64,000 nt of DNA from Eledone cirrhosa (lineage: Eukaryota). The stretch covers positions 254,262,001 through 254,326,000 of the forward strand of contig OZ024740.1 of NCBI GenBank assembly GCA_964016885.1, in the 5' to 3' direction. The translations under genes and the position numbers were made by a program. Shown here one piece after another: positions 14,231 through 51,557 of the stretch. The first letter of the stretch is position 1. Each line of letters begins with the position of its first letter. The notes beneath the pieces are model-generated. The model had not been told where the DNA came from, did not search any database, and saw only the letters and a list, made by a program, of their open reading frames with translations.

Positions 14231-14236
<6 letters not shown>

Positions 14237-16598: not shown

Positions 16599-16655
<57 letters not shown>

Positions 16656-16658
<3 letters not shown>

Positions 16659-17260: not shown

Positions 17261-17284
17261 CGGTGTTAGGGCAGTCTTTCTACT

Positions 17285-17788: not shown

Positions 17789-17792
<4 letters not shown>
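17285..17792 (+). mobile_element. RTE family B 3' fragment with (GAT)n tail
   Basis: Similar to 41670-42166. Confidence 0.9.
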
Positions 17793-19390
<1,598 letters not shown>

Positions 19391-19817
19391 ATCATCATCA
19401 ACGTTTAACATCCATGTTCCACGCTTGCATGGGTTTGGACGGGCGTTTTCCCACTTGAAGCAAGAGTGGTTGTCTTGCTCGCATAGGACTGTCTGGCAGG
19501 TTTTCTACAGTTGGATGCCCTTCCTAACACCAACCACATTTACATTGTGGGTCTGGGAGGTTTTTACCGTGTTGCCTGCACGGCCACATTACAGCTTGGA
19601 CTGTGTGTTTTTTTGTCGTGACACCTACACAATCTCATTTGTTTCGGCCTGGATGGTGTGGCACCAACACAACTTTACATAGAAGGGGGCGGTGTGGATG
19701 GGATGGGGGTGGTGGGGCGGGGGTGCATATTGTTAGAGATGCCTACTGACTGTAGTAGGTTTTACTATGTATTTAGGTAAGGCGGGTCTTCTCTATTACT
19801 GAGTATCGCCAAAGGTC
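19391..19817 (-). mobile_element. RTE family B 3' fragment, inverted relative to 17285-17792
   Basis: Starts atcatcatcaacgtttaac, the reverse complement of the RTE-B tail. Confidence 0.9.
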
Positions 19818-19851
19818 TATATATATATATATATATATATATACATACATA

Positions 19852-19947
<96 letters not shown>

Positions 19948-20396
19948 CATACATATATATACATATATATATACATACATATATATACATATATACATAT
20001 ACATATATATATATGTACATACATATACATATATGTACATACATATACATATATATATATGTACATACATATACATATATATATATATACATATATATAC
20101 ATACATATACATATATACATACATATACATATATATATATATGTACAAAGATATACATACATATACATACATATATATATATATATACATACATATACAT
20201 ATATATATACATACATATACATATATATATACATACATATATATATATACATACATATACATATATATATACATACATATATATATATACATACATATAT
20301 ACATATATACACATATATATATATATACATACATATATATATATACATACATATATATATATACATACATATATATATATACATACATATATATAT

Positions 20397-20427
<31 letters not shown>

Positions 20428-20464
20428 CATACATACATACACATATATACATACATATATATAT

Positions 20465-20495
<31 letters not shown>

Positions 20496-20810
20496 CATAC
20501 ATACATACATACATATATATACATACATATACATATATATATACATACATATACATACATATACATATATATATACATACATATACATACATATACATAT
20601 ATATATACATACATATACATATATATATAGATACATATACATATATATATATATATATATATACATACATATATATATATACATATATATATATACATAC
20701 ATACATATATATATATACATACATATATATATATACATACATACATACATACATATACATACATATATATATATATATTTACATATATATATATATATTT
20801 ACATATATAT
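19818..20810. repeat. (TA)n/(TACA) microsatellite
   Basis: Directly visible. Confidence 0.98.
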
Positions 20811-21268
20811 AGCAGTTGAGCAGTTGAAGTATAAGGACGTGTTTTTACTTCTCTCCCCGAGTAAGCAGCAAGTCACACAGCCACAAAACAAAACCACAAG
20901 ACAAAACCAAACAAACAAAAATTGACCGGTTAATACATTTACATACATCTATATTATTATATATTTGAAAATTGACTGGTTAATACATTTTTCATACATC
21001 TATATTATTATATATTTGAAACCACGTGTTTTCGAACTTGTGAGTACATTTTCCTTTAACTACAAATTATTATTATATACTTTCGTCTTTTCATTAACTT
21101 AATTAATTTCAAATAACCAGAATATACATATATATATATATTTATATATATACGCTTCTCACTCACACACAAGAAAAACAAAAAACAAAAATAAATCAAA
21201 AATAAATTTAAAAAAAATATATATATATTGAAATACTTAACTAAAACACACACACACTCAAAACTAGA

Positions 21269-22435
21269 ATGGCTAACCAGCAAAAATCCAAACAGAACTG
21301 GTCTGATAATGAAATCGACATTCTAATAAACACATGGCATTGCCTTTCCCAAACAGAAGACATACATGCTTCATCTCTGAACGACATTGCTAAACGTACA
21401 GTTCAATTTTTGAAAACTCGATCTGAACAACAGATTCAAAATAAATTAAAGCAAATCGAAATTGCTTTTAAATTAATCAATAAACATTTGGATAAACTAC
21501 GGTGTGTTTTCTCTTCGAATGCTGTCCAGCAGCAGCAGCAACAACAACAGCAGCTACAACAGCAACAACAACAACAGCTACAACAACAACATCAACAACA
21601 GCTACAACAACAACATCAACAACAGCAACAACAACAATAACGACAACAACAGTGTGAACCACTCCTTGATTCATCAACAATGGCCGATCTACTAAATGAA
21701 ACTATTGACCCCCCAGTAGCCTCTGTCTCACAGCATGAAACGCCACATCCTTTCTCTGGCCCAGCAGTCCAATCATCACCACTGCCAACATCTCTGCCTA
21801 CTACTACTACAACATTTTTGTCTACTGCTATGTCAAGGAATTTACCTTCTAATACCAGAACAAGAACTCTCCCTCCCACAGTCCACAAAGGTCGTCAAAT
21901 CCTACCCAAACCATCATCTACACCTCTCACAACACACACACCCACATACCCACCCACTCGAAACCCCATCATTTGCCGCTACTCTCTACGCTATAGAATA
22001 TGTACGGATAGTGGCTGCAAATTCACCCATTTACCTAGGACAAAACGATCTATCCCCACAAACAGCCACCACCATAATACATACTCTAATTTAACACCAA
22101 CACAACCACCAATAACTCAAACAAGGAATCCACAAATCTGCCGTTTTTCCCTGCGAGACAGATTGTGTTTAGACCGGGATTGTCCCTTTACCCATCTCCC
22201 GGGGACCCGTCGGATAAATGAAAATAAAATTAAAAATAAAAGCAAAAACAAAAACCATAACCTACATAAAAATAACCACTACCACAGTCACCAACAGTCT
22301 TCTAAACAGGAAACTTCTTCCTCTTTTTTAGCCATAATGAATCTGGCAAAAGAACTGGAAAAAAACATTCGAGCTATCACCCAGCACCACCCTCCACTAT
22401 CACCCCACTGCACAAACTCCCATTGCTGCCATTAA
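21269..22435 (+). CDS. LINE ORF1: Myb/SANT-like domain, polyQ, two CCCH fingers; one in-frame TAA at 21638-21640
   Basis: ORFs 21269-21640 and 21680-22435 share a frame and are separated only by CAA>TAA in the polyQ tract. WSDNEIDILINTW...IAKR...RSEQQIQNKLKQI; CRYSLRYRICTDSGCKFTH; CRFSLRDRLCLDRDCPFTH. Confidence 0.75.
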
Positions 22436-25400
22436 CAAACAAACAAATTAACAACACACCAAAACAATTAAAACCATCCACTCTCGCCTCTACATTTTTG
22501 CTTAACGCCCAAGGCATCAGCCCTTCCACCAATACTCAAAAATGGAAGATCAAATTCCTGGAGGACTGGATTGATGTCCATCCAAACCACATCCCTTTCT
22601 TCGTCCTCACTGAAACCCATCTCAGCAACCTCCACTTGGAAGCCGAGGTGAAAGTGAAAAATTTCAAAGCCATCCGTGCTGATCGCGCTGGCAGAAGAAA
22701 GGGCGGAACTGCCATTTATGTCCATAATTCTTTCTCAACAGAGGCTATGAACATATTCACTAATGGATACTGTGAAGCAGTCACTGTATTCAGTCAAACC
22801 AACAACCTATTAGTAGTTGGGCTCTATAGGCCACCCCAAACGCCTGTACCATGCTTCAAGGAATGCCTCAACAGCATAAAGTGTTTCATCCAAGAGTGTC
22901 ACCCTGACAACATCTTAATGATGGGGGACTTCAACCTCCCCGGAGTTGACTGGTCCACAAACAGCCTGCCACCAGGTTCTTCTGCCTCAACCTCTGACAG
23001 GGAAGCTGTGGAATCGCTTCTTGACTTCATGGATGATTTCTTCCTATCCCAACTAGTGCTCGAACCAATGAGGTGCCACAAAAACGTCCTAGACTTAATT
23101 TTCAGCAATCACACTGACAATATCCACAATATTGCAGTGGAGAAAACTCTACTCTCTGATCATGACATGGTTCTCTGTGATCTGAGATTCCACCGTCCAA
23201 TATACAAACCCAATGTCATCTCTCCTGTCCATCCGTTTGACGCTATGGATTTCCACAATGCAAACTGGGAAGCGATCGGTCATGATCTTGCACATGTCGA
23301 CTGGTCCTTCACGCACACTCATACACCCACTAACATCAAAAAGTCCTGGCAGACATTTGTGGACACTGTTACAAACATATGTGCTAAACACACCCCATTA
23401 AGAACTATAAACAAATCTAAGAGCAGAATCCCTAGAAATAGAAAAACGCTCATCAGAAAAATTAAGAGAACGAACAAAAAAATCAACAAGCTGAAATACT
23501 GTCAGCAGCAACACATCAACTTGACTGCCATTTCATCACTAGAGATTAAAAAACATAACCTCCAAAACAACATAATGTCCCTCATCAACAATCAGAGAAG
23601 AGCTGAAGAGGCCTGGGCCATTGAGAGGATCAAACTCAATCCCAAAGTGTTCTTTTCATTTGCAAAAAAACACAAAATCACTGGCTCTACTGTTGGCCCT
23701 CTAATTGATGAAAATGGCACTCTTCAAGACAATGCTAAAACCATGGGTGAGATACTGCAGAAACAATACTGCTCTGTTTTCAGCAATCCTGATATGGCCG
23801 ATCTGGGCTGTATCGGCGATGTTACTCCCCATTACACCTTATCGGACATAACGTTTGGCGCCCCTGATGTCTTGGCGGCAATAAAGGAAATCAAGCATAA
23901 TTCAGCAGTAGGTCCCGATAGGTTCTCTGCTTGTGTCTTGAAGGCGTGTCAACACCAACTTGCATCTCCTCTTGCCAATCTGTGGCGGAACTCACTGGAT
24001 GCTGGATATGTGCCAGAAAACCTTCTATCCCAGTCTGTTGTCCCAGTTTTCAAAAAGGGAAACAAATCCCTTGCCGTGAATTACCGTCCAATCTCACTCA
24101 CCTCTCATATCATTAAGGTATTTGAGCGAGTGGTGAGATCGCGAATGACCCACTTCCTTGAGAGTAACAATATGCTGAACTCCAACCAGCATGGATTCCG
24201 TAATGGAAGAGATTGCCTGACGCAGCTACTGCATCACTTTGATGACATTTTGAGAGCCTTGGGAGAGGGTTCCAACACTGATGTTATCTACCTTGATTTC
24301 AGCAAGGCCTTTGACAGGGTTGATCATAACATTCTACTGAGAAAGCTGTCCAATATTGGTGTCACTGGAAGGCTGCTGCAGTGGATCAAGAGCTTCCTGT
24401 CAAACAGAACCCAACATGTTGTAGTTGAGGGAGTCAAATCAAGCCCAGCCAAAGTCAGTAGTGGAGTCCCACAAGGCACTGTGTTGGGCCCACTTCTCTT
24501 CATCATCTATATTAATGACATCACTGACATCATCAAACACAGCAACATTAAAATTTTCGCTGATGATTCCAAGCTCCAAAAGGTCATCAATGGCGTGGAT
24601 GACCGGATAAGCCTTCAGTCAGACCTACTGGCTGTTACCCAATGGGCAGAAAAGAGCAACATGTTACTGAACGAAGACAAATTCGAACTGATCCACTTTG
24701 GAAAAGAGGATGCTCTGAAACTTCCGTACTCCCTTCCCTCCGGGGAAACTCTCGTGGCATCTAACAACATCAGAGACTTGGGAGTAACCGTGGACAGCAA
24801 CATAAGCTGGACCACGCATATAAGCAGCAAAGTTGACATGGCCCGCAGAATGTGTTCCTGGATCCTCAGAACCTTCCAGTCGAGAGATTCCCGCACCATT
24901 ATCCTTCTCTTCTCTACTTTCGCCCGACCACACCTTGAATACTGTTGTCCACTGTGGTCTCCCCACACGAAACAAAGTATCATGAAACTTGAAGCTCCTC
25001 AAAGGGCAATCACGAAAAAGATAGATGGCATGTCAGACCTTGACTACTGGGGTCGATTGGAAAACCTGAAACTTTACTCACTCCAACGTCGCCGTGAGCG
25101 TTATATTATCTGCATGATGTGGAAAATGTTCCATCATCACTGCCCAAATGATGTTGGCATCGCCTTCAAGATACACCCAAGGCTTGGGCCCCGTGCTATC
25201 CGTCCCATTCAAAAATCTAAATCGCAACTCATAACAACACTACGGCACAATTATTTCACCTCAATCGGCCCTGCTCTCTTCAACATCACACCAAGACACG
25301 TCAAAACAGAAACTGACCACACAAAATTCAAGAAGTCTTTGGACAAATTCCTCCAAGTAATCCCGGACAAACCACCCACACCCGAATATGTCTCCGCAAA

Positions 25401-25443
25401 CAGTAATTCTCTTCTCGAATGGGCCATGGTGCCCAAATCCTGA
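22306..25443 (+). CDS. LINE ORF2: AP endonuclease plus reverse transcriptase, uninterrupted, no ATG before the EN domain
   Basis: LNAQG, LTETH, YRPP, MGDFN, SDH; YRPISLT, YLDFSKAFDRV, GVPQGTVLGP, FADD. Frame is open from 22306. Confidence 0.93.
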   Translation, partial: TGNFFLFFSHNESGKRTGKKHSSYHPAPPSTITPLHKLPLLPLTNKQINNTPKQLKPSTLASTFLLNAQGISPSTNTQKWKIKFLEDWIDVHPNHIPFFVLTETHLSNLHLEAEVKVKNFKAIRADRAGRRKGGTAIYVHNSFSTEAMNIFTNGYCEAVTVFSQTNNLLVVGLYRPPQTPVPCFKECLNSIKCFIQECHPDNILMMGDFNLPGVDWSTNSLPPGSSASTSDREAVESLLDFMDDFFLSQLVLEPMRCHKNVLDLIFSNHTDNIHNIAVEKTLLSDHDMVLCDLRFHRPIYKPNVISPVHPFDAMDFHNANWEAIGHDLAHVDWSFTHTHTPTNIKKSWQTFVDTVTNICAKHTPLRTINKSKSRIPRNRKTLIRKIKRTNKKINKLKYCQQQHINLTAISSLEIKKHNLQNNIMSLINNQRRAEEAWAIERIKLNPKVFFSFAKKHKITGSTVGPLIDENGTLQDNAKTMGEILQKQYCSVFSNPDMADLGCIGDVTPHYTLSDITFGAPDVLAAIKEIKHNSAVGPDRFSACVLKACQHQLASPLANLWRNSLDAGYVPENLLSQSVVPVFKKGNKSLAVNYRPISLTSHIIKVFERVVRSRMTHFLESNNMLNSNQHGFRNGRDCLTQLLHHFDDILRALGEGSNTDVIYLDFSKAFDRVDHNILLRKLSNIGVTGRLLQWIKSFLSNRTQHVVVEGVKSSPAKVSSGVPQGTVLGPLLFIIYINDITDIIKHSNIKIFADDSKLQKVINGVDDRISLQSDLLAVTQWAEKSNMLLNEDKFELIHFGKEDALKLPYSLPSGETLVASNNIRDLGVTVDSNISWTTHISSKVDMARRMCSWILRTFQSRDSRTIILLFSTFARPHLEYCCPLWSPHTKQSIMKLEAPQRAITKKIDGMSDLDYWGRLENLKLYSLQRRRERYIICMMWKMFHHHCPNDVGIAFKIHPRLGPRAIRPIQKSKSQLITTLRHNYFTSIGPALFNITPRHVKTETDHTKFKKSLDKFLQVIPDKPPTPEYVSANSNSLLEWAMVPKS

Positions 25444-25530
25444 ATTGAAAGACTTCGCCAGGTGGTGCTATTAAGTTAGACATGGCCTGGGCCAATACTG
25501 GCCAAAACATTTCAAAGTTATTCAAAGTTA

Positions 25531-25569
25531 TATATATATATATTTACATATATATATATATATATTTAC

Positions 25570-25611
<42 letters not shown>

Positions 25612-25829
25612 TTACATATATATATATATACATACATATATATATATATTTACACATATATATATACATATATATATATATATTTACACATATATATATA
25701 TATATTTACACATATATATATATATATACATATATATATGTACATACATATATATATATATATACATACATATATATATATATATACATACATATATATA
25801 TATATATGTACATACATATATGTACATAC

Positions 25830-25861
<32 letters not shown>

Positions 25862-25862
25862 G

Positions 25863-25904
<42 letters not shown>

Positions 25905-26082
25905 CATACATATATATATGTACATACATATATATATATATGTACATACATATATATATATGTACATACATATATATATGTACATATATATATATATGTA
26001 CAAACATACATACATATCTATATACATATATATGTACATACATATATATATATATATATGTACATATATATATATATATATA
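25531..26082. repeat. (TA)n compound microsatellite
   Basis: Directly visible. Confidence 0.98.
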
Positions 26083-26249
26083 GTATTAAGGGTACTATTT
26101 ATGGTTATGTATGCAATAAAACCTTTGATGGTAATATATTATATATACACAAACCCTAAATAGTGAGAGATAGTCTTTAATTACTATCCTATTACCAGTA
26201 AGTTAAATAGCTCAATGTAATAACATCAGTTGTTATACAGAGCAGTTAT

Positions 26250-26899
26250 ATAGAGATTACAGTAATCAAAGTTCAGTTTAAGTCATTTATTTGCTTACAA
26301 TTGTTTCCTCCAAACCGAGGTTTGGATTCTTCGGAGCAGTTATTTATAACATACTTGACCTCCTTTTCAACCCAAGAGACACATAAAACATATGCGCATA
26401 TTGATCAACAGTGGTGACATTCATCAAATGAAATAGCATGGCAATTTACATATAAAGTGTTACATGATAAAAATAAAATAAAATAAAAGCAAGAGTGAAA
26501 ATAAAGATAAACATGAAGCGTTGGCAGTCTATGAAGATAAAGCAAGAGGAAAGTTTAGAGTAGTCAGTGCATGAAGCAATCTCCCGTGTAGCATGCACGC
26601 TTGTCTTATCTATACATGATTAGAGTGCGTCAGAATGATATTTGTAGGGTCAGGTAGTTGAAGCAGGCAATCGATCTTATAATATAGGCTGAATTATTAA
26701 GTCATTTATTCTCATACATCTGTATGATATACAGTCTCGGATGCGGGGAAACACCAAAATATCAAAAACCTTCAACATACTATAAACCTTACTGACCCTG
26801 CAAATATCATTCTGACGCACTCTAATCATGTATAGATAAGACAAGCGTGCATGCTACACGGGACATTGCTTCATGCACTGACTACTCTAAGCTTTCCTC
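26250..26899 (-). mobile_element. Penelope-like 3' region, family 3, with a ~110-bp inverted duplication (26545-26653 versus 26791-26899)
   Basis: Homologous to 14231-14770; inverted segment visible directly. Confidence 0.6.
26292..26338 (-). ncRNA. Minimal hammerhead-like motif, family 3
   Basis: ugcu CCGAAGA a UCCAAAC-cucg-GUUUGGA g GAAA CAAUUG UA agca. Confidence 0.6.
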
Positions 26900-29322
<2,423 letters not shown>

Positions 29323-29323
<1 letters not shown>

Positions 29324-31999
29324 CAAAAGCCTTCCCTAGTGAGGAATGTACATCCCAACATAGCTTAGTTGTCAGCGACCTCACGGTCAGAACTAGACGA
29401 GCCCTGAAACAGAGGCCAACCTGGAGAAGAAAGATCTGGAAGCTGAAAGTCCCCTCAACCAGTAACAGATTTAAAGATATTTTACTCAACGCCTACGACA
29501 GTAAAGAAGAACAGATAGAGACATTTAACGTAGAAGAGAACTGGGAGTTCCTAAAAAATAACTTACTAGAGGCGACGGATGAGGTTTGTGGCTGGAGTAA
29601 GACCTCAAGCAGGAGGAGAGTGACTTGGTGGTGGAACAATAAGGTAGATGAAGCAGTCAAGGCCAAGAGACAGGCATGGAAAGAATGGAAGAACGGGGGA
29701 GCAGGGTACATTACATAGAGACCAAGAGGGAAGCTAGGCGACAAGTATACTTAGCTAGGAGGGAAGCAGAGGATAGAAAATTCAAGCATGTTTTACAACG
29801 TGAGGACCAGAAACAGGAGGTATTCAAGATTGCGAGGCAGTGTGTCAGAGATAGTTGTGATGTCATTGGAGAGAAGTGTATCCGGAATGATAAAGGTGAG
29901 CTTGCCCTCACAAGTGCTGAGAAGAAAGATGCATGGAAGAGTCATTATGATAGATTACTAAATGAGGAGAATGCATGGGAAGAAGAGACCCTACCCACGT
30001 AGACCCTATAGAGGGACCAGCAGTACAAGTCAGCGGCAGCGTAGTAAGTAAGACAATCAGAGATATGAAGATAGGGAAGGCAACCGGTCCATCGGGTATA
30101 GCTGCCGAGATGCTGAAGGCATCTGGGTCTGTAGGCCACACTATAACCACACGTATCGTTAACCAGGTAATACTAGAGGGGGCCATACCAAAAGATTGGT
30201 GCAGTAGCATCATTGTCAACTGCTACAAAGGTAAAGGCGATGCACTAGATAGAGGAAACTATAGAGGTATAAAGTTGATGGACCAGGTCATGAAAGTAAC
30301 AGAAAGAGTTATAGCACAGCTGATTAGGGACCGGGTGAATATAGACGAGATGCAATTTGGGTTTGTTCCAGGGAAGGGCACCACTGATGCGCTCTTCCTT
30401 GTGAGGCAATTACAGGAAAAGTACCTAGCTAAAAGTAAGCCACTCTACTTGGCATTTGTCGACCTTGAGAAAGCCTTTGACAGAGTTCCACGTGCAGTAA
30501 TCTGGTGGGCTCTTAGAAAACTAGGAGTAGATGAATGGCTTGTGAAAGCGGTACAAGCCATGTATAGGGGAGCAGTCAGCAAAGTTAGGATTGGCAATGA
30601 GTATAGCGAGGAATTTAGCGTACAGGTTGGGGTCCACCAGGGCTCTGTTCTTAGCCCTCTCCTGTTCATCATAGTCCTGCAGGCAATAACGGAGGAGTTT
30701 AAGACCGGATGCCCATGGGAACTCCTGTATGCTGATGACCTCGCACTCATAGCTGAATCTATGGTAGAACTAGAGAATAAATTCCAAACCTGGAAGCAGG
30801 GACTAGAGAGAAAGGGCCTCAAAGTCAACATGACAAAGACTAAGGTCCTTATAAGTAGACGAGAAAACAGAACCCAGATCCCCTCAGGGAAATGGCCTTG
30901 CTCAGTATGTAGGAAAGGTGTAGGTAGGAACTCCATTCTTTGCCCCAAATGCAAACAATGGGTACACAAGAGATGTAGCGGGATCTCAGGAAGCTTAATT
31001 AAGAATGTAGGATTCACATGCAGCAGCTGTGCTGAAACAGCAAGCAAACAGCCACAGGAAACAAGTACCACCAATCTCTGGGAGGGCCCTGTAGAAACAG
31101 TAGACAGCTTCTGCTACCTAGGTGACCGAATTAGCAACGGAGGTGGGTGCTCAGAAAGTACAATAACTAGGGTAAGAACGGGATGGAAGAAGTTTAGGGA
31201 ACTACTACCACTGCTAGCTGCAAAAGGCTTCTCCCTCAGAATGAAAGGCAGACTGTATGATGCGTGTATCCGAACAGCGATGTTGCATGGTAGTGAGACC
31301 TGGGCGCTGAAGGTGGAAGACTTACGTAGATTAGAGAGAAACGAAGCCTGCATGCTCCGATGGATGTGTAACAGTAATATACGTGAACGACAAAGCATAA
31401 ATGAATTGAGAGAGAGACTGAGCATAAGAGGAATCAAATGCTGCGTGCAGGAGAGGCGGTTACGCTGGTATGGACATGTGATGCGTATGAAGGATGACAG
31501 CTGCATAAAAAGGTGCAGAGCACTAGAAGTTGATGGAAACCGCGGAGTGGGGAGACCCAAGATGACTTGGGATGAGGTGATAAAAGCCGACCTTACCCAA
31601 CTACACCTCTCAAAGTCAATGACACACGACCGTGACTTCTGGCGTCACGCAGTAATACCGGGTACCCGACCTCCCATGGGTACATGCTGAAGCATATAAA
31701 CAATATGCCCCCCCCCCCCCCCACCGCAAGGTGGTCGTGGAGGTGCCACGGCAAAAAAGCACCCAGCCCACACTGTAAAGTGGACGTGTAGGCGCCACGA
31801 AAAAGCACCCAGCACTCACTGTAAATGAGGTTGGTGTTAGGAAGGGCATCCAGCTGTAGAAATCAAGCCAGATCAGTTCCTGTATGAGCAAGGCATGGTC
31901 AGCCGACCAGACACTGCTCACAACAGGACAACCCGTCTAACCCATGCTAGCGTGGAAGAACGGACGTAAAACGGTGATGATGATGATGATGATGATGAT
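29323..31999 (+). mobile_element. 5'-truncated RTE family A copy
   Basis: Near-identical to 54691-57371; two single-base deletions in homopolymers (~29695, ~29994); RT ORF 29975-31690; (GAT)n tail. Confidence 0.97.
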
Positions 32000-33998
<1,999 letters not shown>

Positions 33999-34049
33999 AA
34001 ATATTAAACAAATAATGAACAAACAATTCCTTATATTAAACAAAAAAAG

Positions 34050-34204
34050 TTCACTATTTAACGATCGTTTCTAGGGTATATATGTGTTATAATTGGTATG
34101 CATATTTAACAGATCTATGTACAAAATTATACAAGATTATACAAATTATCAAGATTAAATATACATACCTAACTCATATATACGCCGTCTTCAGAAATAA
34201 TGAA
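34050..34204 (-). ncRNA. Type I hammerhead-like motif with greatly extended stem II, family 4
   Basis: uucauuauuu CUGAAGA [~120-nt hairpin] GAAA CGAUCG UU aaauagugaa. Confidence 0.7.
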
Positions 34205-34779
34205 GTATATTTATTGATAATAACAACAATTCAAAATATCAGTTCAAAATTGACCAATGAAAACACAAAGGGTTAAAAGCAGTTTGGTGTGTGTATATAC
34301 ATGTAAAAACCTTACACATATTTTACAATAATGTGTGTATAATTTGTATGTGCATACTAAAAAGATGGATGCAAACACAAAATTTCAAGGTTAATATCTC
34401 TGTAAGCTTAATGCGCTGATAAGATACGCAATGATACTTATGGAGTCAAGCATATAAATATATATTTTTTTTCATACTCACACATATCAGTATAATCACA
34501 CATACATGTGCGTATATGCATAAATATACACATAACCACGAACATACAAACACACACACTCACCCACTCACATTTATATATGTGGATATAAAATCATAAG
34601 CAAATAGAAATTAAGTCACTCACATAAAACACTGGCACACACATTTTTCAAGATCAAGATACAGAAATTAGGTGGGAGGGGGGGGGGAGGGGTCAGTATT
34701 AGATTGTCAGACCAGACTGCCTAATATAAATGTATCTATAAATTAAGAAAAATAAAAAAAATAAAAACAATAATAAATA

Positions 34780-37742
<2,963 letters not shown>

Positions 37743-38049
37743 ACAATCTTGCAGTTTTGCTTTTTGTTAAATCGCTTGTTAAACATTCATAACCTTCCAG
37801 CTCCTCAATTCCTTAATTCTATCGTATTCTCAAACAAAAAACAAAATCCTTCCCATTCTACTTCTTATAAATTACTTTAAATATATATATTATGCTACTT
37901 GAAAGTCAAAAAATCCGCTCTACGCCCTCACCCTCCAGCTACTCCACGAGGGGCTGCGGTCAGCCACAATCTCTCTCCCCCTTCCCCTCTCTCTTTCTTC
38001 CCTTTCCCCTCTCTCTCTCTTCCCCTTCCCCTCTCTCTCTCTCTTAGCT

Positions 38050-38106
<57 letters not shown>

Positions 38107-41100
38107 ATAAGTTCTCCTTCATGTTTATTCACTTTCGCCAATCCATCGCTGCTTCAACTATTCCTACTACGGTGTACCATGTAAATCGTAAAGTACAAAT
38201 TTTTCTCTATCCAACGCTCAATTTCGTACATAGTCCAAACATCCAATCTCGCAAAATCCGAAATCTGTATTTTTTGTTATCTATTTAAGGTTTAAATACG
38301 GTGTTTTTGTCGTATTGAACAGAACAAATCTTGCAGTTTTGCTTTTTGTTAAATCGCTTGTTAAACATTCATAACCTTCCAGCTAGCTACCCCACACCCC
38401 TCCCACCCGCCCCCACACACCACCATTCTTAATACGTGGACCAATCATAAGCCAGAGCCCCCCCCCTCACGCATCACCATTATTATTATAAGCCAGACCC
38501 CCCCCCCCACGCATCACCATTATTATTATTACGCGGACCAATCATAAGCCAGAGGCCTATACTATCGCTTGCCCGGTTGCCTTCGATATATGATGGAGGG
38601 ATGGATGGACGGACTGCGGAATCCTGGAGAGTGGAAGGGAGAGAAAAATCTGGACGCTCAGAGCGAAAATGCCAAAGTTAAAGTCAAATTCACCGCGTGG
38701 ACGAGAATGCGAGCACTCCTCTTTGTTTCGTCCGCGGATGGCTAACATAACCCTATCTCCCCCCGCCCCCCACCCTCCAAACGCAACCCAAAACTTCAGA
38801 GTTGGTACCATAAATGTAGGCACCCTAAAGGGTCGCGCTAACGAGGTTGTAGAAATGCTTGAACGTAAGGAGGTCGATGTTTGTTGTATTCAGAGACCAG
38901 GTGGAGGGTGGGTCTGCTAGATTCATTGAGGGTAAAAAACGATGTTATAAGCTTTTCTGGGTGGGAAACGACGATGGGCTGGGTGGAGTAGGAATCATGG
39001 TAGCAGAAAAGTGGGCAGATAAGATAATAGACGTAAATAGAGTGAACGACAGAATAATTAAAATACGACTTGTCCTCAATAGAACTACGGTGACAGTAAT
39101 ATCTGCGTACGCACCCCAATCCGGACTGCCCGGCACTATAAAAGACAGATTCTATGAGACACTGTTGCTAACTACCTCCCAACTATCTGACAGTGACTAT
39201 ATAATTATTGCAGGCGACCTAAATGGTCACGTTGGACAACATTGTGACGGCTACGACGAAATCCATGGAGGCTATGGGTTTGGTACTAGAAATGAGGAAG
39301 GCTCCAGAATCCTGTGATGCAAATAACCTAACTATCTGTAACACTAACTTCAAAAAACGTGACAATCACCTGATCACCTATAGATCCGGGGAACACACAA
39401 GCCAGGTAGATTATACCCTTACCAGAAGACGTGACAGAGTGTCTGTTGTAAACACTAAATCCCTCCCCCATGAAGAATGCACCTCCCAACATAGACTGAT
39501 AATTAGCGACCTCATAGTCAGGACGAGACGTACTCGACAGCAGAAGAGGACTATCCTCAGGAGGAAAATATGGAAACTAAAGGACCCCACAGCCAGAAAT
39601 AAATTTCAAAGCAAATTACTTGATGCTTTCGACAGTAAGGAAGAGCATCTAGAATCGGACAATATAGAGGGACAGTGGGAATTTCTGAAAGCAAACCTGC
39701 TGTTGGCGACAGACGAAGTCTGTGGCTGGAGCAGGCCTGTAGGCAGGAGGAGAGTAACATGGTGGTGGAACAGTAGGCCAAAAAGCAGGCTTGGAAAGTA
39801 TGGCGGGATGGGGGAAGTAGAGTAGACTATCAAGTGGCCAGGAGGGAAGCTAGGAGAGAAGTGTATTTAGCAAGAAGGGAAGCTGAGGAAAGAAAGTTCA
39901 AGCATGTTCTACAACGCGATGACCAAAAACGTGAGGTGTTCAGGATTGCTAGGCAATGCGTCAAGGAAAACCGTGATATTGTCGGGGAGAAGTGTGTACT
40001 TAACGATGATGGCATACTTGCCATCACCGACACTGATAAGAAGGTAGCTTGAAAGTGTCACTATGAAAGGCTACTAAATGAGAAGAATAAATGGGAGAAA
40101 GACAGTCTCCCCCATATCGACCCAATAGAGGGACCAGCAGTGTTAGTCGAGGGGAGTATAATAAGTAAGGCAATCAAGGATATGAAGACGGGTAAGGCGG
40201 CTGGGCCTTCGGAAATAGTTGCTGAGATGCTGAAGGCATCTGGCACGGTGGGACACACCATGGTCACCCGCATAGTTAACCAAGTCGTACAGAATGGGGT
40301 TGTTCCGAAGGACTGGCATAGCAGCATCATCGTTAACTGTTATAATGGTAAAGGAGACGCCCTAGATAGGAGTAACTATAGAGGCATTAAATTAATCGAC
40401 CAGGTCATGAAGGTCACGGAAAAAGTAATAGCGCAACTAATCAGAGAGAGAATTGACCTAGATGAAATGCAGTTCGGGTTTGTGTCAGGCAAAAGCACCA
40501 CAGGCGCTCTTTTCATAGTACGACAACTACAGGAGAAGTACCTAGCTAAAGGTAAACCCCTCTACTTAGCTTTTGTCGACCTGGAGAAAGCCTTCGACAG
40601 AGTCCCCCGCTCCATTATCTGGTGGGCTCTTAGAAAACTAGGCGTTGACGAATGGCTTGTGAGGGCTATACAAGCCATGTATAAAGAAACAGTCAACAAG
40701 GTTAGAATTAACAACGAATATAGTGAAGAGTTTAGCGTAAAAGTTGGCGTCCATCAGGGCTCTGTTCTCAGCCCACTACTATTTATTATTGCCCTTCAGG
40801 CTATAACAGAGGAGTTCAAGACAGGCTGCCCATGGGAACTCCTATACGCAGACGACCTGACACTCATAGCGGAATCAATGGCCGAGCTAGAGAAGAAATT
40901 CCAAACATGGAAGCACGGCCTAGAGTCAAAAGGACTTAAAATTAACCTGGCTAAGACCAAAGTTCTAGTTTGTAGGAAAGAAAACAAGGCGGCGGTCCCT
41001 TCTGGGAAATGGTCGTGCTCGGTGTGTAGGAAAGGCGTAGGTAGAAACTCCATTTTATGTCCTAAATGCAAAGTATGGGTGCATAAAAGATGTAGTGGGA

Positions 41101-42166
41101 TCACAGGTAAGCTAACTAAGAACATAGATTTTACATGTGGCCGGTGTTCTGGTGCAATAAGTAGCAGCAAGTGCCCACAAAATACTAGCTCCTTCAATTG
41201 CGCAGAGGGTTCTATAGAAATAGTGGACAGCTTCCGTTACCTGGGCGATAAAATCAGCAGTGGGGGAGGGTGCTCTGAAAGTACTGTAGCTAGAGTCAGA
41301 ACTGGTTGGAAAAAGTTCAGAGAGCTTATACCACTATTAGCTGCTAAAGGGTTCTCCCTAAAAATGAAAGGCAGGTTGTACGATGCCTGCATACGAACAG
41401 CAATGTTGCATGGTAGTGAGACCTGGGCATTGTGTGCAGAGGATATACGCAGACTAGAGAGGAACGAAGCTTGCATGCTCCGCTGGATGTGTAACAGTAA
41501 TAATATACGTGAACGGCAAAGCATAAACGAACTAAGGAAAAAATTAGAGATAAGAGGGATCAGATGTTGTTTACTCGAGAGAAGGCTGCGTTGGTATGGA
41601 CACGTGATGCGCATGAAAGTCGATAGCTGTATAACAAAGTGCAGGGCAATAAAGATAGACGGTAGCCACGGAATAGGCAGACCTAGAAAAACATGGGATG
41701 AGCTGATAAACTCCAACCTCACACACTTACACCTCTCCAAGACAATGTCACTGGACCGAGACCTTTGGCGGTACTCAGTAACAGAGAAGACCCGCCTTGC
41801 CAGTAGGCATCTCTAACAAAATACACCCCGTCCCGCCACCACCCCCACCCCATCCACACCACCCCGTTCTATGTAAAGTTATGTTGGTGCCGCGCCATCC
41901 AGGCCGAAACAAATGAGATCGTGTAGGTGTCACGACAAAAAAAAACACAGTCCACGCTGTAATGTGGCCGTGTAGGCAACACGGTAAAAACCTCCCAGAC
42001 CCACACTGTAAATGTGGTTGGTGTTAGGAAGGGCATCCAACTGTAGAAAACCTGCCAGACAGTCCTATGCGAGCAAGACAATCACTCTTGCCTCAAGTGG
42101 GACTACCCCCGTCCAAACCCATGCAAGCATGGAACACGGACGTTAAACGTTGATGATGATGATGAT
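37743..42166 (+). mobile_element. Near full-length RTE family B LINE, EN region disrupted
   Basis: GTINVGTLKG, SAYAPQ, GDLNGH in broken frames; RT ORF 40140-41816 (VDLEKAFDRV, HQGSVLSP, LYADD, C4HC3 finger); (GAT)n tail. Confidence 0.95.
38391..38556 (+). promoter_or_regulatory. Candidate internal Pol II promoter of RTE-B (CACCC/GC boxes and two GGACCAATCA)
   Basis: cccacccgcccccacacaccaccat...ggaccaatcataagccag; similar blocks at 53705-53760 and 58900-58962. Confidence 0.45.
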
Positions 42167-43325
<1,159 letters not shown>

Positions 43326-43522
43326 TAGATAAATCTACCAAGAGTTTACGGTAGTGTCCAATCCGTATGAAGAACTCAATGTAATCCGGATATCATGGAA
43401 AGAAGAGATGCAATGAAATATCACTTTCGGTGAAAGATAAACGGAATACAGAGTCAAGATAAAATATTAAAAAAAATAATGAATAAAACAATGAAACAGT
43501 TCCTTATATTAAACAAAAAAAG

Positions 43523-43676
43523 TTCATTATTTAACGATCGTTTCTAGGATATATATGTGTTAGAATTGGCATGCATATTCAACAGATCTATGTACAAAAT
43601 TATACAAAATTATACAAACTATCAAAATTAAATATACATACCAACACATATATATGCCGTCTTCAGAAATAATGAA
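43523..43676 (-). ncRNA. Type I hammerhead-like motif with extended stem II, family 4, second copy
   Basis: Perfect 10-bp stem I uucauuauuu/aaauaaugaa; CUGAAGA; GAAA CGAUCG UU. Confidence 0.7.
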
Positions 43677-43948
43677 ATATTTAATATTTTATACATATAT
43701 ATATACATATATATACATATACATTTAAATAGAACTTTTGCATATATATATATATATATGTGTATATGTATGTATATATACATATACATATACATACATA
43801 TACACATATATATATATATATATGCAAAAGTTCTATTTAAATTGATGGGATACAACAAGCAAATATTTTTATAACTGATATAAAGCACTCGACAAGTATT
43901 TGGAGTAAATATACGATATTAACAAATGGAAACTATATTTATAAAACC

Positions 43949-44024
43949 ATATCTATTTTATTATACATATTTCAAGGATACCATGTTAAATTATGGTATG
44001 CTTTCATCAGACAAAATACAATAT
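43949..44024 (-). ncRNA. Type I hammerhead-like motif, family 1, inside repeat copy 43823-44090
   Basis: CUGAUGA AAG-c-AUACCA...UGGUAU-c-CUU GAAA UAUGUAUA auaaaaua. Confidence 0.75.
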
Positions 44025-44129
44025 ATACCAGTTTTATAAATAAACATTGACGTACCCTTTCAAAATGCAACCGTTACTTTTGGAAGACATCAAGGATAGT
44101 GGATTTGTTTATTTTAGTAAGTCGTTGTG

Positions 44130-44385
44130 TTAAGGAGAAGGAAAAAGACGGAGAGAGAGAAAAAACCGAGAGAGAGAAAAGTGGAGAAAGAAAGGGAGAG
44201 ATAAATAAAGAAGAAAAAAAAGAAAGATAAAAGAAAAAAAGAAAAAAGAAAAAAAAAGAAAGATAAAAGAAAAAAAGAAAAAAGAAAAAAGAAAACAGAG
44301 AAAAACAAGAGAGAGATATCAAACCACCAGACAGAGAAAAAATCAAGAGAGAGAAATATAGAGATAGAGAGAAGGGGAGAGAACG
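44130..44385 (+). repeat. Polypurine (GA/AAAG) tract
   Basis: Directly visible. Confidence 0.9.
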
Positions 44386-45521
44386 AAAACCTTAAGTCAT
44401 GTCATATTAAGTTAAGTTAACAATTGAGATGAAATGAATAAATAAAATTAGAAATATTAATATTCATGAATGGAATATACATATATAATATGAGAAATTA
44501 ATCAATGTTTAACTATAATTAGATATTTAGTTTAAAAATTGAGATCAATATATTAAAAATTGGAATTTAAACATTACGAAATATATATATTGCTAAAGAA
44601 ATTACCTATCATATAGCACGTACATATACGCAAAAATACACATAAATATATATATACACACACACTCAGAAAATACACATTATATCTACTCCCGCATATA
44701 ATATATACATACAAAGCATAAATGATTTTTGTTATTATTATTATTAATGTTATACATCCCTTGTGTTATTAAATACAAATTTTTAGTATATATATATAAA
44801 TATATAGGATTAACTTTCATGTATTTATGGCTGTTAAATTATGCCTATCTGCAATCAAATTGTATGGGTACACATGTACATGTACACACACAATTCTTAC
44901 ATATACATATATAAACATGTGTGTGCATCCTCACCCAATTGGTAGACACACATCACTCATGCATATATACAGACATATATTCATAAAAATGCATATAACA
45001 CATGTATATGTATGTTAATACACACACATACATACATAGTCGTATAGAGATAAGTATACATCGATATATTACATAGTATAATTGAGTACATAAAATACAA
45101 AAGGATTATATTTTGGAAATATAATTATATCAATATAACTTAAAAACTAAAGAATTCTACAAATATCAAAATATTAAAATATTTTAAAATATTATAAATA
45201 TTTTAAGTTAAAATAATATGTTTAATAGATTTAGTATAGAAATTTATCTTACGTATATTTTACTCAAGATATTGAAAGGATAAACTTTTCTAGAATAGTT
45301 TATTATATTTATATTTAGGAAGAAAATTTATGTATACTTGAGTACTTAACCAAATAAAATGAAAAAGGTGAAGGAATCTAATGATTTATCAACAGGTTTC
45401 ATATATTAACCAAATTACTTAATTAATTATACTACATTTTAAATTTATATTTAAACGTTGAGTTCAATCTATGTCTGCAGCAACTGAATAAATTATTCCT
45501 TAAATTAATCGAATAATTAAG

Positions 45522-46307
45522 CTTAGATTAGTTGTAGGTAGGAGACTACTGACAATCATCTCGGCCTATGCTCCCCAAGCAGGCCTAGGCAAAGATGAGA
45601 AAGACTGCTTTTATGAGCAACTTTTGCAAACCACCGCAATGACAGAGGACGGAGACATCGTTATGCTAGCAGGAGACTTCAATGGTCATGTTGGACAGCT
45701 CCAGGATGGTTACACTGGGGTACATGGTGGGCACGATTAAGGTTCAAAAAATGAAGAAGGAGTGAGACTTCTTGAATTTTGTGATGCAGGTACATTGACT
45801 ATTTGCAACACAAACTTCCAGAAACCTGCCAATCACCTAATAACCTACAAATCTGGTGAGCACATAAGCCAGATTGACTTCTTACTAGTTAGGCAGCGGG
45901 ACAGGCAGATAGTGTCTAATACCAAGGCATACCCTGGGGAAGAATGTACCCCACAGCATAGGTTAGTTGTTAGTGATATCTCAGTAAGCAAGAGATGGAA
46001 TGAGACATATAGGAAGGTGTGGAGAAGAAAGGTCTGGAAGCTAAAAGACCTTTCACTAAAATACAAATTTAGGAAAGCCCTTCAAGATGTATATGACGAA
46101 AAAGAAGACGATTTAGAGATGTATGACATAGATAATAACTGGAATTTCTTACGTGACAACTTGCTGCATGCAGGCTACTGATGAAACTTGTGGCTGGAAC
46201 AGAGCTCCAACCAGACAGAGAGTGACCTGGTGGTGGAACAGCACAGTAGATAAGGCTATTAGAGACAAAAGACTAGCATGGAAGGCTTGGAAAAAGGGTG
46301 GGAGTAG
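45522..46307 (+). mobile_element. Older RTE endonuclease fragment, interrupted at 46307 by a Penelope-like element
   Basis: ISAYAPQ, GDFNGHVG, LLEFCD, CTPQH, VTWWWN. Confidence 0.9.
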
Positions 46308-48831
46308 TTGATGGTAAGTACTGCGCTCCACTTGATATAGGTTGCCAGTTTTGTCGGAATGGACGTGCACGGCATTAGAATCCTTAATAGAACAAATTCT
46401 ATTCTTCAGGTCTTGCTGGAAGGAATTGCTCCTATTCCGAAATTTGATACTCCGAATGAGTTCCAAGACATCATTTTCGAAGGGTAGCAATGCTGGGTTA
46501 CACGGGGGGTTATTATAGGTTTTAAATCCAAATTTATCCTGTTTGTTGTCTGCTTTTCGCGGGTTATCGAAATAAAAGGCACGCCAACGCAACCTTTTAA
46601 TGAACGCGTCTGTTTTCTGTATCAGGAGATTTAGGTATGTTTTCCTGCTTGGTACGGGTATGTTCTTTGTAGAAATATTCAGATGTTGTTTCTGCATGAT
46701 GAATATAAGTCAGTAGAGTGCTCAACTGAGGGAGCCAAACTACTACATAATGCTGTAACTAAGGATTACCGTAAAATTAATTGGTGCGTCATCAATGAAA
46801 TCAACGATGCTGGGTTTAAAATCACATCTGATCTCAACATCCTGGACCGGACCGAACCTCTGGACCCTATTTCTCCCCACTTTACCCTGAAGGATCACAA
46901 ATCCAATTTTCTGAACAACCCCCCCTATTCGGTTTATTAACCCTACGAAGTCCGATTTAGGTAGACTTAGTAAAAGGATTCTTGATAGAATTATACCTGA
47001 AATTAGAAGTTTGGCCCCTCTTGCACTGTGGAACAATTCTTTCGTGGCGATTGATTGGTTCAACGGCATATGTAACAAGGAACATTGCCGTTTTATCCAA
47101 TTCGACATCAACAATTACTACTCCTCCATCACTTTACCACTTCTCCTTAGAGCTATCAATTTCACTAAAACACTCACAGTGGTTAAGGATTTCGAAGTTG
47201 ATGTCATCCTCAATGCCTGAAAGTCGGTGATTAATTTCGACGACTCTATTTGGATTAAAAAATCCAATAGTACCCCATTCGACGTAAGTATGGGCGCCAG
47301 TGATTCTGCGGAGGTTACTGATCTTATCGGCCTTTTCCTTCTTTTCTCTATCAAGGACGAATTCCCCAACGCGGGCGGTGGTTTGTACCGTGACGATGGT
47401 CTTTTGACCATGACTAAGTGCGGACCTCATGCTTGAGACAGGTTCAGAAAAGAACTCACAGCCTTCTTTAAAGGCTTCAACCTCTCCATACAGGTTGAGG
47501 CCAATCTCTCGTTCGTTAATTAGCTTGACGTTACCCTCAATTTATTGAATGGGTTGTATTACCCGTATAGAAAGCCTAATGATACGCTTAATTACATAAG
47601 TAAGCATTCCAACCATCCTGCCAGCATAACCAAGAACCTGGTAAGAAACGTTTCGTTGAGGCTTTCCCGTCTTTCCACCAACGAGCGTATTTTCAACGAC
47701 CATTCCACTTATTACAATGAAGCTCTTGCTCGAAGTGGATTTGTCGATAAGGTAGCATATAGAGAGTACGAAAATAGACCTAGAAGAAATAGATCCCGTC
47801 GCATTTGTTGGTATAACCCACCATATAATATGGAGGTGGCCACACCATTAGCTAAGATTTTTCTTTCCCTTATTACGAAGCATTTTCCCCCTACACATAA
47901 ATATAGTAAAATTTTTAATAGAAATACTATTAAAATTTCTTACTCTACGACTCCTAACCTTGCACATAACATCACAGCTTCAAATTTAGCTAAACTACCT
48001 AGCCATAGGAACACGTGCAACCCTGTAAGTACTAATTGTAATTGTAGGAATCGGGTTGTTTGCCCCCTCTCCGGGAAATGCCTCTCTAGTAACATAGTCT
48101 ATAAATGTAAGGTTGTAACACCCACGTCCCGTAGGGCCTACATAGGGTTAACCGCCAATAGATTCAAGCAGCGTCTTTACACGCATACCCATTCTTTTCG
48201 TTACCCTCTAAGAAGGAATATGACGTCACTTTCAGCTTATATCTGGAGTCTAAAAGGCAACCACACCCAATATAAGTTACACTGGGAGATCCTAGCTAGG
48301 GCTAGATCGTATAACGGAAATAAAAGACCATGTGACCTCTGCGCTGCTGAGGCCCTGGAAATACTCTACGCCACAGACCACATCTTAAACAAAAAATCTG
48401 AGGCAATTTCGGCTTGTAAACATAAATTGCACAAATCTTTCCTGTGTTACAGCCCCACGTTATACCCTAACGGATAGTACGATCTATACGTGGATATTTT
48501 ACGTCTTGATGTGGGAGCTAAGTATATGTTTTGTTTATACCGTTACTTATTTGTATAGGTAAGTATATATTACCCGTATGTTTCGTGAAGGTACGTATAC
48601 CTTCTCGTACGTATATTTGATTGTTTATGTTATGGCGTATAATTTTTTTATTCTGGTACATATGGTTTGGCTATGTGTATACGGGAGTTTTGCGTCTGTG
48701 TGAGTATGCAGGTTCGTACGTATGTAGGGTGTGTGTATATGTGTACTTCATGTTTTGGTTGACTTAAGTCTCCGAACATTCGTGTATTTACATGTAGGTA
48801 TGTGTGTGCTTGTTATATACGTATTTATTAA

Positions 48832-49378
48832 AGATAGACGGTAGTCACGGAATAGGCAGACCTAGAAAAACCTGGGACGAGCTGATAAACTCCGACATCA
48901 CACACTTACACCTCTCCAAGACAATGTCACTGGACCGAGACCTTTGGCGGTACTCAGTAACAGAGAAGACCCGCCTTACCTAAATATATAGTAAAACCTA
49001 CTCCAGCCAGTAGGCATCTCTAACAAAATACACCCCGTCCCACCACCCCCACCCGATCCACACCACCCCGTTCTATGTAAAGTTATGTTGGTGCCGCGCC
49101 TTCGAGGCCGAAACAAATGAGATCGTGTAGGTGTCACGACAAAAAAACACACAGTCCACGCTGTAATGTGGCCGTGTAGGCAACACGGTAAAAACCTCCC
49201 AGACCCACACTGTAAATGTGGTTGGTGTTAGGAAGGGCATCCAACTGTAGAAAACCTGCCAGACAGTCCTATGCGAGCAAGACAATCACTCTTGCCTCAA
49301 GTGGGACTACCCCCGTCCAAACCCATGCAAGCGTGGAACACGGACGTTAAACGTTGATGATGATGATGATGATGATGA
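48832..49378 (+). mobile_element. RTE family B 3' fragment nested in the PLE 3' region
   Basis: Near-identical to 41651-42166 plus a ~30-bp extra segment; (GAT)n tail. Confidence 0.93.
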
Positions 49379-49611
49379 TTTATATCCGTTTATATAATTA
49401 TTTATTTATTTGTATACACGCATACACACACACATATTTATATGTGCGTGGTTTTGTATACCTATGGTAATTGTTTTGCGTATGCTTGTGTATGTACGTA
49501 TCTGTTTGCATGTATGTATTTATTTGTTTGTTCCTATTACTTCTGTATTGTATTTATTTACTTTGTTCTTAACTCTGTAGCGGAGATTCATTCGGTCTCC
49601 TAGTTATAATT

Positions 49612-49880
49612 TTAGTCTACGACTTCTGCTATACCATTTACGTGATTTTGTCTTTGCGTGCTATTGTTCTCCACGCTCCACATATGACGTATTATCTTCG
49701 TTTTTTCGTTCATTGCCAGAGAACGTCTCTATGCACCACCTAAGAGAACATTAGTCTACGACCTCTTTTATACCATAAACGTGGTTCTGTCTTTGCGCGT
49801 AATTGTTTTTCACCGCTCCTATTAACAACGTATCTTATTCGTTTTTTCCCGTTCTTTGCCAGCGAACGTTTCCACGAACC
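49612..49880 (+). repeat. Two diverged ~139-bp tandem units in the PLE 3' region
   Basis: Both begin ttagtctacgac (49612, 49751). Confidence 0.8.
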
Positions 49881-49943
49881 AAAGTATCGTCTTCCTGTCT
49901 TCATCCGGTTGCAACGTTTTTTAAAATATCCACTTCTGCGTTT

Positions 49944-50019
49944 ACAGATTGACTTTGTTAGTTTCAGAAGATCCCGTTAAGGGTGAAAGCAGCGATTCTT
50001 TGCTTAAACTTTAATCTGT
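49944..50019 (+). ncRNA. Type I hammerhead-like motif with variant core (CAGAAGA)
   Basis: Stem I acagauuga(cuuuguu)aguuu/aaacu-uuaaucugu; stem II CCC-guuaa-GGG; GAAA; stem III GCAG/UUGC; CUU triplet. Confidence 0.55.
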
Positions 50020-50244
50020 TATTTTAATAAATAAATATATATATATATACAGTTTAATTTATTATTTGTGTGACCCGAATTTTCCTGGTCGTTTTTTCGG
50101 CTGTGCGAATGATTGTAAGCATTGTCTCTATGTGTTGGTATTTAAACGATAATTATAGCTCTGGTTTATCCAAACTATTGAGGCCTTTACCAAATATTTC
50201 AAAGATTGTGTTATTTCGGGGGCCGAGATTCCGATTCTCGATAA

Positions 50245-51557
<1,313 letters not shown>

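Follow-up and report, generated by a model that had tools for sequence, protein, structure and literature searches.

In a 64,000-nt stretch of the Eledone cirrhosa genome (hereafter, the window), a sequence-only reading had pointed to a minus-strand fold resembling a hammerhead ribozyme, present twice and drawn out by a stem II of about 120 nt. The locus raises the question of whether a fold with so long a stem II belongs to a genuine hammerhead, what kind of genetic element carries it, and whether it would be expected to cut.

Architecture of the two copies

In copy 1, read 5' to 3' along the minus strand, the 5' strand of stem I (34195..34204), which contains a 5'-end hotspot at an A (34201), is followed by core positions C3 to A9 (CUGAAGA; 34188..34194), by an extended stem II of 116 nt (34072..34187), and by a GAAAC-GAUC-GUU segment (34060..34071) comprising G12 to A15.1, a palindromic stem III/loop 3, and U16.1 and U17. 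The predicted cut site lies between 34060 and 34059, and the 3' strand of stem I occupies 34050..34059. The arm consists of an outer helix of ca. 31 bp and an inner hairpin, carries a C.A mismatch at positions 10.1 and 11.1, and has a fold z score of −7.3 when taken alone. The stem I 5' sequence recurs 39 nt downstream (34010..34020, minus strand), where it is predicted to capture the stem I 3' strand in a competing hairpin. In copy 2 (43523..43676, minus strand), stem I pairs 43676-43667 with 43532-43523, the core lies at 43666-43660, stem II measures 115 nt, and GAAA is found at 43544.

When scored against the core consensus in the accessible methods text of Perreault 2011 (PMC3088659), both copies were found to possess every type I core base (C3 U4 G5 A6 N7 G8 A9 / G12 A13 A14 A15.1 / U16.1 H17). 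The minimum free energy (MFE) fold of the isolated motif was the hammerhead three-way junction, with stem I open, in both copies (fold z scores of −5.60 for copy 1 and −6.09 for copy 2; none of 200 shuffles was as good). The proposed fold was thus borne out in its core, 10-bp stem I, hairpin, and MFE junction, as was the statement that copy 2 keeps the core together with a perfect stem I, which is fully Watson-Crick paired. The long arm likewise stood, but at a measured length of 115 to 116 nt it falls a little short of the original estimate.

The same reading had drawn on covariation between the two copies, citing a G-C pair of stem II replaced by A-U. The swap is real and lies at alignment columns 22/129 (A-U in 13, G-C in 5, and G-U in 2 of 20 variants), but the copies do not make a true pair: they belong to two different subfamilies (A and B) of one high-copy repeat, and two copies alone are weak evidence. 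In an alignment of 20 variants, chosen from 39 distinct ones and with identity down to 76%, paired cells reached 95.1%, compared with 26 to 56% for slid partners. One firm pair changed in compensatory fashion by way of G-U; some dozen wobble changes were one sided, mostly U-A/U-G and A-U/G-U, which pair on the minus strand only. Across the five measures of a shuffle control, whose rows are closely related, 13, 303, 7, 274, and 11 of 500 shuffles scored as high; the 303 refer to pairs altered on both sides (two such pairs) and the final 11 to the covariation score. Covariation of the arm is, in short, modest. Arm length in this family ranges from 101 to 126 nt, largely through loss or gain of a 10- to 11-nt repeat, and H17 is U or A, never G, in all 20 aligned variants. 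Some A-to-G changes in the arm could stem from RNA editing before reverse transcription; by either route, whether pairing is kept or the RNA is edited, the wobble changes suggest that the hairpin would exist in RNA. Conservation of the core across unrelated families (see below) is stronger evidence than the two-copy covariation. The long arm appears to be a tolerated, structurally maintained extension, possibly with a binding role.

It could be argued that the arm is largely a retained intron of a Penelope-like element (PLE), with splicing from a donor-like GUAUGU to the AG at G12 leaving a compact hammerhead that is thereby switched on. The G/GUAUGU sequence is nearly invariant among the 20 variants, a branch-like CUAAC lies 17 nt ahead of the AG in subfamilies B and C, and the spliced form of subfamily B folds with a 6-bp stem II (−1.8 kcal/mol); PLEs, moreover, retain a short intron near the start site, according to the accessible text of Schostak 2008 (PMC2377424). 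However, the spliced subfamily A arm has no fold (0 kcal/mol), the branch-like site is absent from subfamilies A and D, the pairing changes fall on bases within the supposed intron, and no such donor was seen by eye in the 81-, 83-, and 97-nt arms of other families. None of the 168 local core matches, which come from overlapping loci, was a spliced form, and the contigs of four sequencing runs of unknown kind contained no splice joint over the arm. We consider the intron explanation very unlikely. One depth-2 contig of run X5, derived from another organism, lacks 90 nt of the arm (L032:1322-1413), with non-GT/AG ends, and leaves a short stem II; either a relative with a short arm or an artefact could explain it. 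In run X1, contig depth over the pseudo-LTR (pLTR) is far above that over the ORF, such depths not being copy numbers.

Parent element and genomic setting

In the first alignment of the window copies, likeness faded within tens of bases outside the motif, and the sequence of copy 2 beyond the motif is the 5' untranslated region (UTR) of the PLE. Searching the 3.0-Gb genome at the DNA level yielded 742 candidates, of which 40 were scored. All 40 were full length and near identical, and they formed clusters with a spacing of ca. 6 kb, in both direct and inverted orientation. The clusters examined contain tandem units of 6,054 to 6,061 nt; their ORF of 813 aa is intact, and its ATG is found 488 nt past the hammerhead core. 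One array (L031-L033; C2, 170.42-170.445 Mb) holds three full units head to tail, with four hammerheads and an inverted piece, an arrangement expected of rolling-circle or template-jump copying. The 16-nt 3' core has 8,712 exact matches in the genome, compared with 3 for the reversed control.

The ORF bears a reverse transcriptase (RT) and, at its C terminus, a GIY-YIG endonuclease (YRDD and Y-x12-YIG). Scanned against Pfam, the ORF itself yielded nothing significant; 1,252 protein relatives were found at an E value of ≤1e-20, with PF01541 in two of those listed, and the named relatives among the 120 listed of the 1,252 included Argonauta and Solemya (ca. 43%). A single RT/GIY-YIG ORF, partial-tandem pLTRs, inverted 5' pieces, and a 3' tail place the element among the PLEs. 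Within these, the accessible text of Craig 2021 (PMC8557442) defines the Hydra clade by an RWK-type motif, DKT in place of DKG, a CxCX5C linker, and CxxC and CxH in the endonuclease. The 813-aa ORF has RWR at 37, DKT at 115 (DKG is absent), CNCRNKTNC at 673 (CxCx5C), CRLC at 771 (CxxC), and CNH at 799 (CxH), and the 3' ends of the copies run into TA repeats, matching the (TA)n insertion of Hydra elements. The unit of 6.05 kb exceeds the size of Hydra elements (<3 kb), a shortness that the same text gives as a general trait rather than a defining one. Its microsatellite-rich 3.1-kb 3' UTR (L032:4234-7347) carries long TA/TG microsatellites, so that the element itself spreads such arrays. An insert of ca. 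100 aa rich in Asn, Lys, and Thr separates the RT from the endonuclease, and GTYGAG was found 27 to 60 nt upstream of the ATG in all six Hydra families examined (L032:1756, L185, L202, L218, L220, and L080).

The subfamily B ORF is 94% identical to that of subfamily A. Copies that are ca. 99% identical occur in thousands, on both strands and on several chromosomes, joined to intact PLE ORFs. The window copies are pLTR end pieces of this young, high-copy Hydra-clade element, and its discovery substantiates the earlier suggestion of a PLE-type type I hammerhead with a palindromic stem III. Copy 1 (33997..36140, minus strand) is a 5'-truncated, ORF-less copy of ca. 2.1 kb from subfamily A, made up of the hammerhead, 63 nt, and the final ca. 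2 kb of the 3' UTR; it stops at the short 3' terminus, which a TA-rich microsatellite adjoins, and by blastn it matches the full unit at 91 to 93% including microsatellites and at 99.7% across the last 302 nt. Copy 2 (43322..43683, minus strand) is a TA-flanked solo pLTR of subfamily B (the hammerhead plus ca. 200 nt) that ends at the long 3' terminus, where a small hairpin (43325..43338, minus strand) may mark a second reverse-transcription start.

Both copies lie in sense within an intron of ca. 51 kb (13100..64000, minus strand, ending ca. 490 nt past the window) of what is likely a C1QBP/MAM33-family gene, which upholds the claim that they are sense to a host pre-mRNA. On the minus strand, 7 kb to the left of the window, a family search found a match to the last exon of MAM33 (E value of 2.4e-7); to the right, 490 to 645 nt beyond the window, an exon bounded by AG and GT is in a phase compatible with that of exon 13000-13099. 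The exons assigned to the gene (10044-10166 and 13000-13099, minus strand; L239:492-644, minus strand; and L245) spread it over more than 70 kb. By likeness, we take the inner exons to be those of C1QBP; they had no significant database match. The host exons were not named by a Pfam scan of 110 of the 234 open stretches (108 minus, 2 plus) or by PDB searches.

At least three further hammerhead motifs of other families lie in sense in this intron, and several such motifs in one intron fit slow cutting and ordinary insertion, not a host function. Alternatively, the C1QBP intron might carry the motif as a regulatory ribozyme of the host, the motif might be a retrozyme in its own right, or AT-rich repeat DNA might fold this way by chance. 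This would accord with the sense placement of both copies in one host intron and with a region that is AT rich and full of TA repeats. Against this stand the genomic copies, thousands of them at 99% identity and in both orientations, that come with intact PLE ORFs, the fold z scores of the two copies, and the absence of a 170- to 400-nt tandem retrozyme array from every locus inspected. As an account of the origin of the motif it is refuted by the PLE-attached copies genome-wide, and we give it hardly any credence. A non-LTR retrozyme, defined in the accessible text of a preprint (bioRxiv 10.64898/2026.07.22.740005) by short noncoding tandem hammerhead units, was likewise rejected: the tandem units here are 6 kb long and coding, and the short copies are solo or head to head.

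The window holds much else. Four copies, at 3600 (−), 3765 (+), 14049 (+), and 44010 (−), belong to a different hammerhead family, in which stem II is 30 nt long and stem III reads UAUGUA; the last shares its strand with copy 2 and lies 340 nt upstream of it. Hammerheads at 14313 (−) and 26334 (−) have a U4C core (CCGAAGA) and match an 819-aa Hydra family; a 794-aa family is also U4C. A copy of a 713-aa Hydra family with a 5' inversion lies at 46149-48477 and 49965 (+), and this family has 12,756 candidates in the genome; its pLTR contains, by eye, a hammerhead-like motif with a U4A core, in which stem II is short and stem III longer and whose MFE fold is not clean. The remainder is transposon rich (8244-9752, 22306-25443, 29324-31974, 38787-42164, 53938-57349, 14894-16148, and 51560-53660) and includes a DNA transposase with a zf-Tnp_2 match nearby, a further fragment that by eye is PLE-like, and a tandem repeat of ca. 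410 bp. Several LINEs in the window are presumably RTE- and CR1/L2-like.

Copied templates and expected cutting

Among the first 30 core matches on C1, 3' ends fell at two sites, 63 and ca. 200 nt past the cut site, and were followed by (TA)n; on the 5' side, 16 extended upstream, 9 stopped in stem I, and 5 stopped in the arm. The templated base before the A at −7 was absent from 1,381 of 5,726 genomic copies (355 + 1,026; 24%), the base before the A-7 junction being G in only 355 of the 1,381. We take the TCATT around this A to be initiator-like. Drosophila virilis Penelope has an internal initiator promoter (Schostak 2008, PMC2377424, accessible text), and the two together argue for a pLTR transcription start inside stem I, likely at this very A (34201). 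Alternatively, the 5'-end hotspot could reflect endonuclease cutting or fold-back priming.

GUU was intact ahead of the 3' anchor in 7,916 copies and missing in 109; the first 30 of the latter comprised 10 point mutants and 20 junctions. From these counts (ca. 99% read-through), it follows that the RNA that is copied is almost always uncut. No clear pile of 5' ends was seen at the cut site, with ca. 0.9% falling within 3 nt of it, or about twice background (estimated from 5 of 30 copies). At head-to-head junctions (L132, L133, L111, and L112), the first 12 to 13 nt of the 5' end are repeated two to three times, suggesting that RT re-copies the RNA 5' end repeatedly. Four of 30 GUU-less loci (L158, L160, L175, and L180) are inversions that switch strand exactly through stem I, which could have arisen after cleavage or by simple microhomology.

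At 10.1/11.1, where the usual hammerhead has a pair (mostly G-C), the window motif has C.A. Mispairs at this position were rejected in Perreault 2011 (PMC3088659, accessible text), though U.U can be active, and C.A also occurs at a Hydra-like metagenome locus (L326). As mismatches here are common in Hydra hammerheads, C.A lowers the expected speed of the ribozyme, not its claim to membership. The predicted probability of stem III in the monomer is 0.25, and the palindrome self-duplex is predicted at −10 kcal/mol; dimer-type PLE hammerheads with low activity are described in the accessible texts of Cervera and de la Pena 2014 (PMC4209133) and of a review (PMC6765202). The predicted probability of stem I, at equilibrium, is 0.8 to 0.98 with 14 nt of downstream sequence and ca. 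0 with 60 to 70 nt. The competing duplex is predicted at −9.9 kcal/mol versus −7.2 for stem I, and 4 of 500 shuffles were as strong. The competing hairpin beat shuffles in subfamilies A, B, and D and in a family with a 97-nt arm (P values of 0.008, 0.026, 0.02, and 0.048, respectively) and was not significant in the other 11 of the 15 families tested; the short 3' terminus falls just beyond it. With a stem I probability of ca. 0 in its natural flank, the active fold may rarely form. We put at about 0.72 the probability that the window motif is a type I hammerhead in a PLE pLTR, with a 115-nt hairpin as its stem II, whose predicted cutting is slow or conditional only.

A harsher reading of the same data is that the hammerhead is catalytically dead, its core persisting through overlap with an internal promoter or owing to the youth of the family, and its hairpin serving only as RNA structure for an element protein or for RNA stability. 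This would account for the ca. 99% of copies that read through the cut site and for the predicted loss of stem I in its natural context, and it gains from the C.A at a pair that served as a rejection criterion (Perreault 2011, PMC3088659), from the presence of at least five sense hammerhead motifs in one intron of a likely housekeeping gene, and from the finding, in the accessible text of PMC11167929, that catalytic mutants of an anole PLE left in vitro insertion unchanged. It sits poorly, however, with the retention of the core, A15.1-U16.1, a non-G at position 17, and stem I across families whose proteins are 42 to 55% alike; a promoter has no need of a GAAA half 116 nt off; and PLE hammerheads with no activity on their own do cut when dimeric or assisted by protein (PMC4209133 and PMC11167929, accessible texts). 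We therefore regard a dead ribozyme as improbable.

If the hammerhead is instead slow or conditional, RNA would start within stem I, driven by the pLTR promoter, and the element's RT would begin internally, 63 or ca. 200 nt past the cut site, copying uncut RNA into (TA)n targets to give solo pLTRs (such as copy 2) and truncated copies (such as copy 1). The 2-bp palindromic stem III would need a partner hammerhead or an element protein, the core would be slowed by the C.A mismatch, and stem I would be captured by the downstream hairpin once ca. 45 further bases had been transcribed. Cutting would then be confined to a brief co-transcriptional window or to protein-bound dimers, where it would trim read-through or tandem transcripts to unit length. 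One more speculative, and on balance doubtful, extension is that stem II has repeatedly been made into a large RNA domain in the Hydra PLEs of this host (three unrelated arms of 81 to 126 nt), that the family of the window copies has added a stem I start and a competing hairpin to form a timed switch that spares its own template and cuts only read-through or tandem RNA, and that such arms could hide hammerheads in clades reported to be without them.

The long arm among known hammerheads

Among 78 Hydra-like loci from metagenomes, 51 had a canonical hammerhead, all with arms of 11 to 25 nt (up to 300 nt was allowed), and the remaining 27, many of them short contigs, had none. Other motifs in the E. 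cirrhosa genome have stem II lengths of 13, 14, 20, 21, 23, 27, 30, 36 to 38, 47, and 51 nt. Unrelated Hydra families of the genome, whose arms measure 20, 20, 23, 38, and 81 nt, retain the core and junction, as does the 97-nt family, and arms of 81 to 126 nt occur in three families that share no sequence by blastn. The 81-nt arm sits before the ORF of a sister Hydra family that is 54% identical in the N-terminal half, and has an 83-nt relative (76% identity) in which pairing is retained. The 97-nt arm is branched and belongs to a repeat with 1,944 candidates, a Hydra-like endonuclease lying upstream in 1 of 12 loci. Both the 97-nt family (L232:9180-9520, minus strand) and the 81/83-nt arms (L190 and L185) have a palindromic loop 3 and U.U or A.A at 10.1/11.1. 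A quick-method protein tree, made up only of ORFs of this genome and database matches, did not resolve relations among the long-armed families. Two further candidates were rejected: a 186-nt "arm" in the 3' UTR of an 850-aa family, which folds weakly and whose ORF is preceded by a normal 23-nt hammerhead, and three matches of 226 to 240 nt in L266, which are a repeat with a noncanonical core and a 3-bp stem I.

A focused Rfam scan of 34020-34240 found no hammerhead family at an E value of ≤10, and in a scan of the whole window the 150 of 572 matches listed consisted solely of hits of microRNA models to TA repeats. In Craig 2021, the relaxed search for the core permitted a spacer of 7 to 17 nt (PMC8557442, accessible text). 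A stem II four to ten times the usual length is thus missed by standard searches, and the prediction that it would escape the usual descriptors proved correct. For comparison, 235 Rfam hammerheads are listed for the giant squid (PMC6962438, accessible text). In the literature searched, which left subscription papers mostly outside, we found no PLE hammerhead with a comparable arm. What is new is the arm length; a hammerhead in a PLE pLTR is already known, and this is not a new ribozyme class. Judged from sequence, the window feature is a real, structurally maintained hammerhead motif in a known type of carrier, with an arm exceeding any PLE example in that literature.

Natural PLE hammerheads, then, can bear arms of more than 100 nt. 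Since such arms evade Rfam and short-spacer descriptors, the reported absence of hammerheads from Naiad elements is worth re-testing. For the question of what PLE hammerheads do, this family supplies thousands of young copies from which the copied RNA can be read off (uncut, often with its start inside stem I), together with defined mutations to study (arm deletion, C.A repair, and the competing hairpin).

The closest known relatives are the Hydra-clade hammerheads of Craig 2021 (PMC8557442, accessible text and File S2; including Hydra-1_Obim of Octopus), which share the protein motifs, (TA)n, and a type I motif in the pLTR, and in which mismatches at 10.1/11.1 are also frequent (U.U in many); their stem II, however, is 12 to 26 nt by our count by eye, versus 115 to 116 nt here. 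The minimal metazoan PLE hammerheads of Cervera and de la Pena (PMC4209133, accessible text) are likewise type I and dimer type, with a short palindromic helix III and low expected activity, but they have a helix II of 6 to 8 bp, a helix I of 4 to 5 bp, and a conserved G10.1-C11.1, whereas the window motif has ca. 31 bp plus an inner hairpin, a helix I of 10 bp, and C.A. The longest arms in the table of File S2, ca. 54 nt by eye and half that of the window motif, belong to PLE-X hammerheads of Selaginella and Chara; PLE-X1_cBra shares C.A at 10.1/11.1, although PLE-X elements are from plants and lack the endonuclease. In the discontinuous Clec2 hammerhead of mammals (review PMC6765202, accessible text), too, a long insertion between the core halves defeats compact descriptors, but there several hundred nucleotides are inserted in a host 3' UTR outside any PLE, while the insert described here is itself paired and extends stem II. 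Finally, the Poseidon PLE of Anolis (Frangieh 2024, PMC11167929, accessible text) resembles the present family in its two internal RT starts and tail, its mainly uncut template, and its AT-rich targets; it belongs to another clade, has a short hammerhead overlapping the ORF start, and has been shown to possess protein-assisted activity, which here is a prediction.
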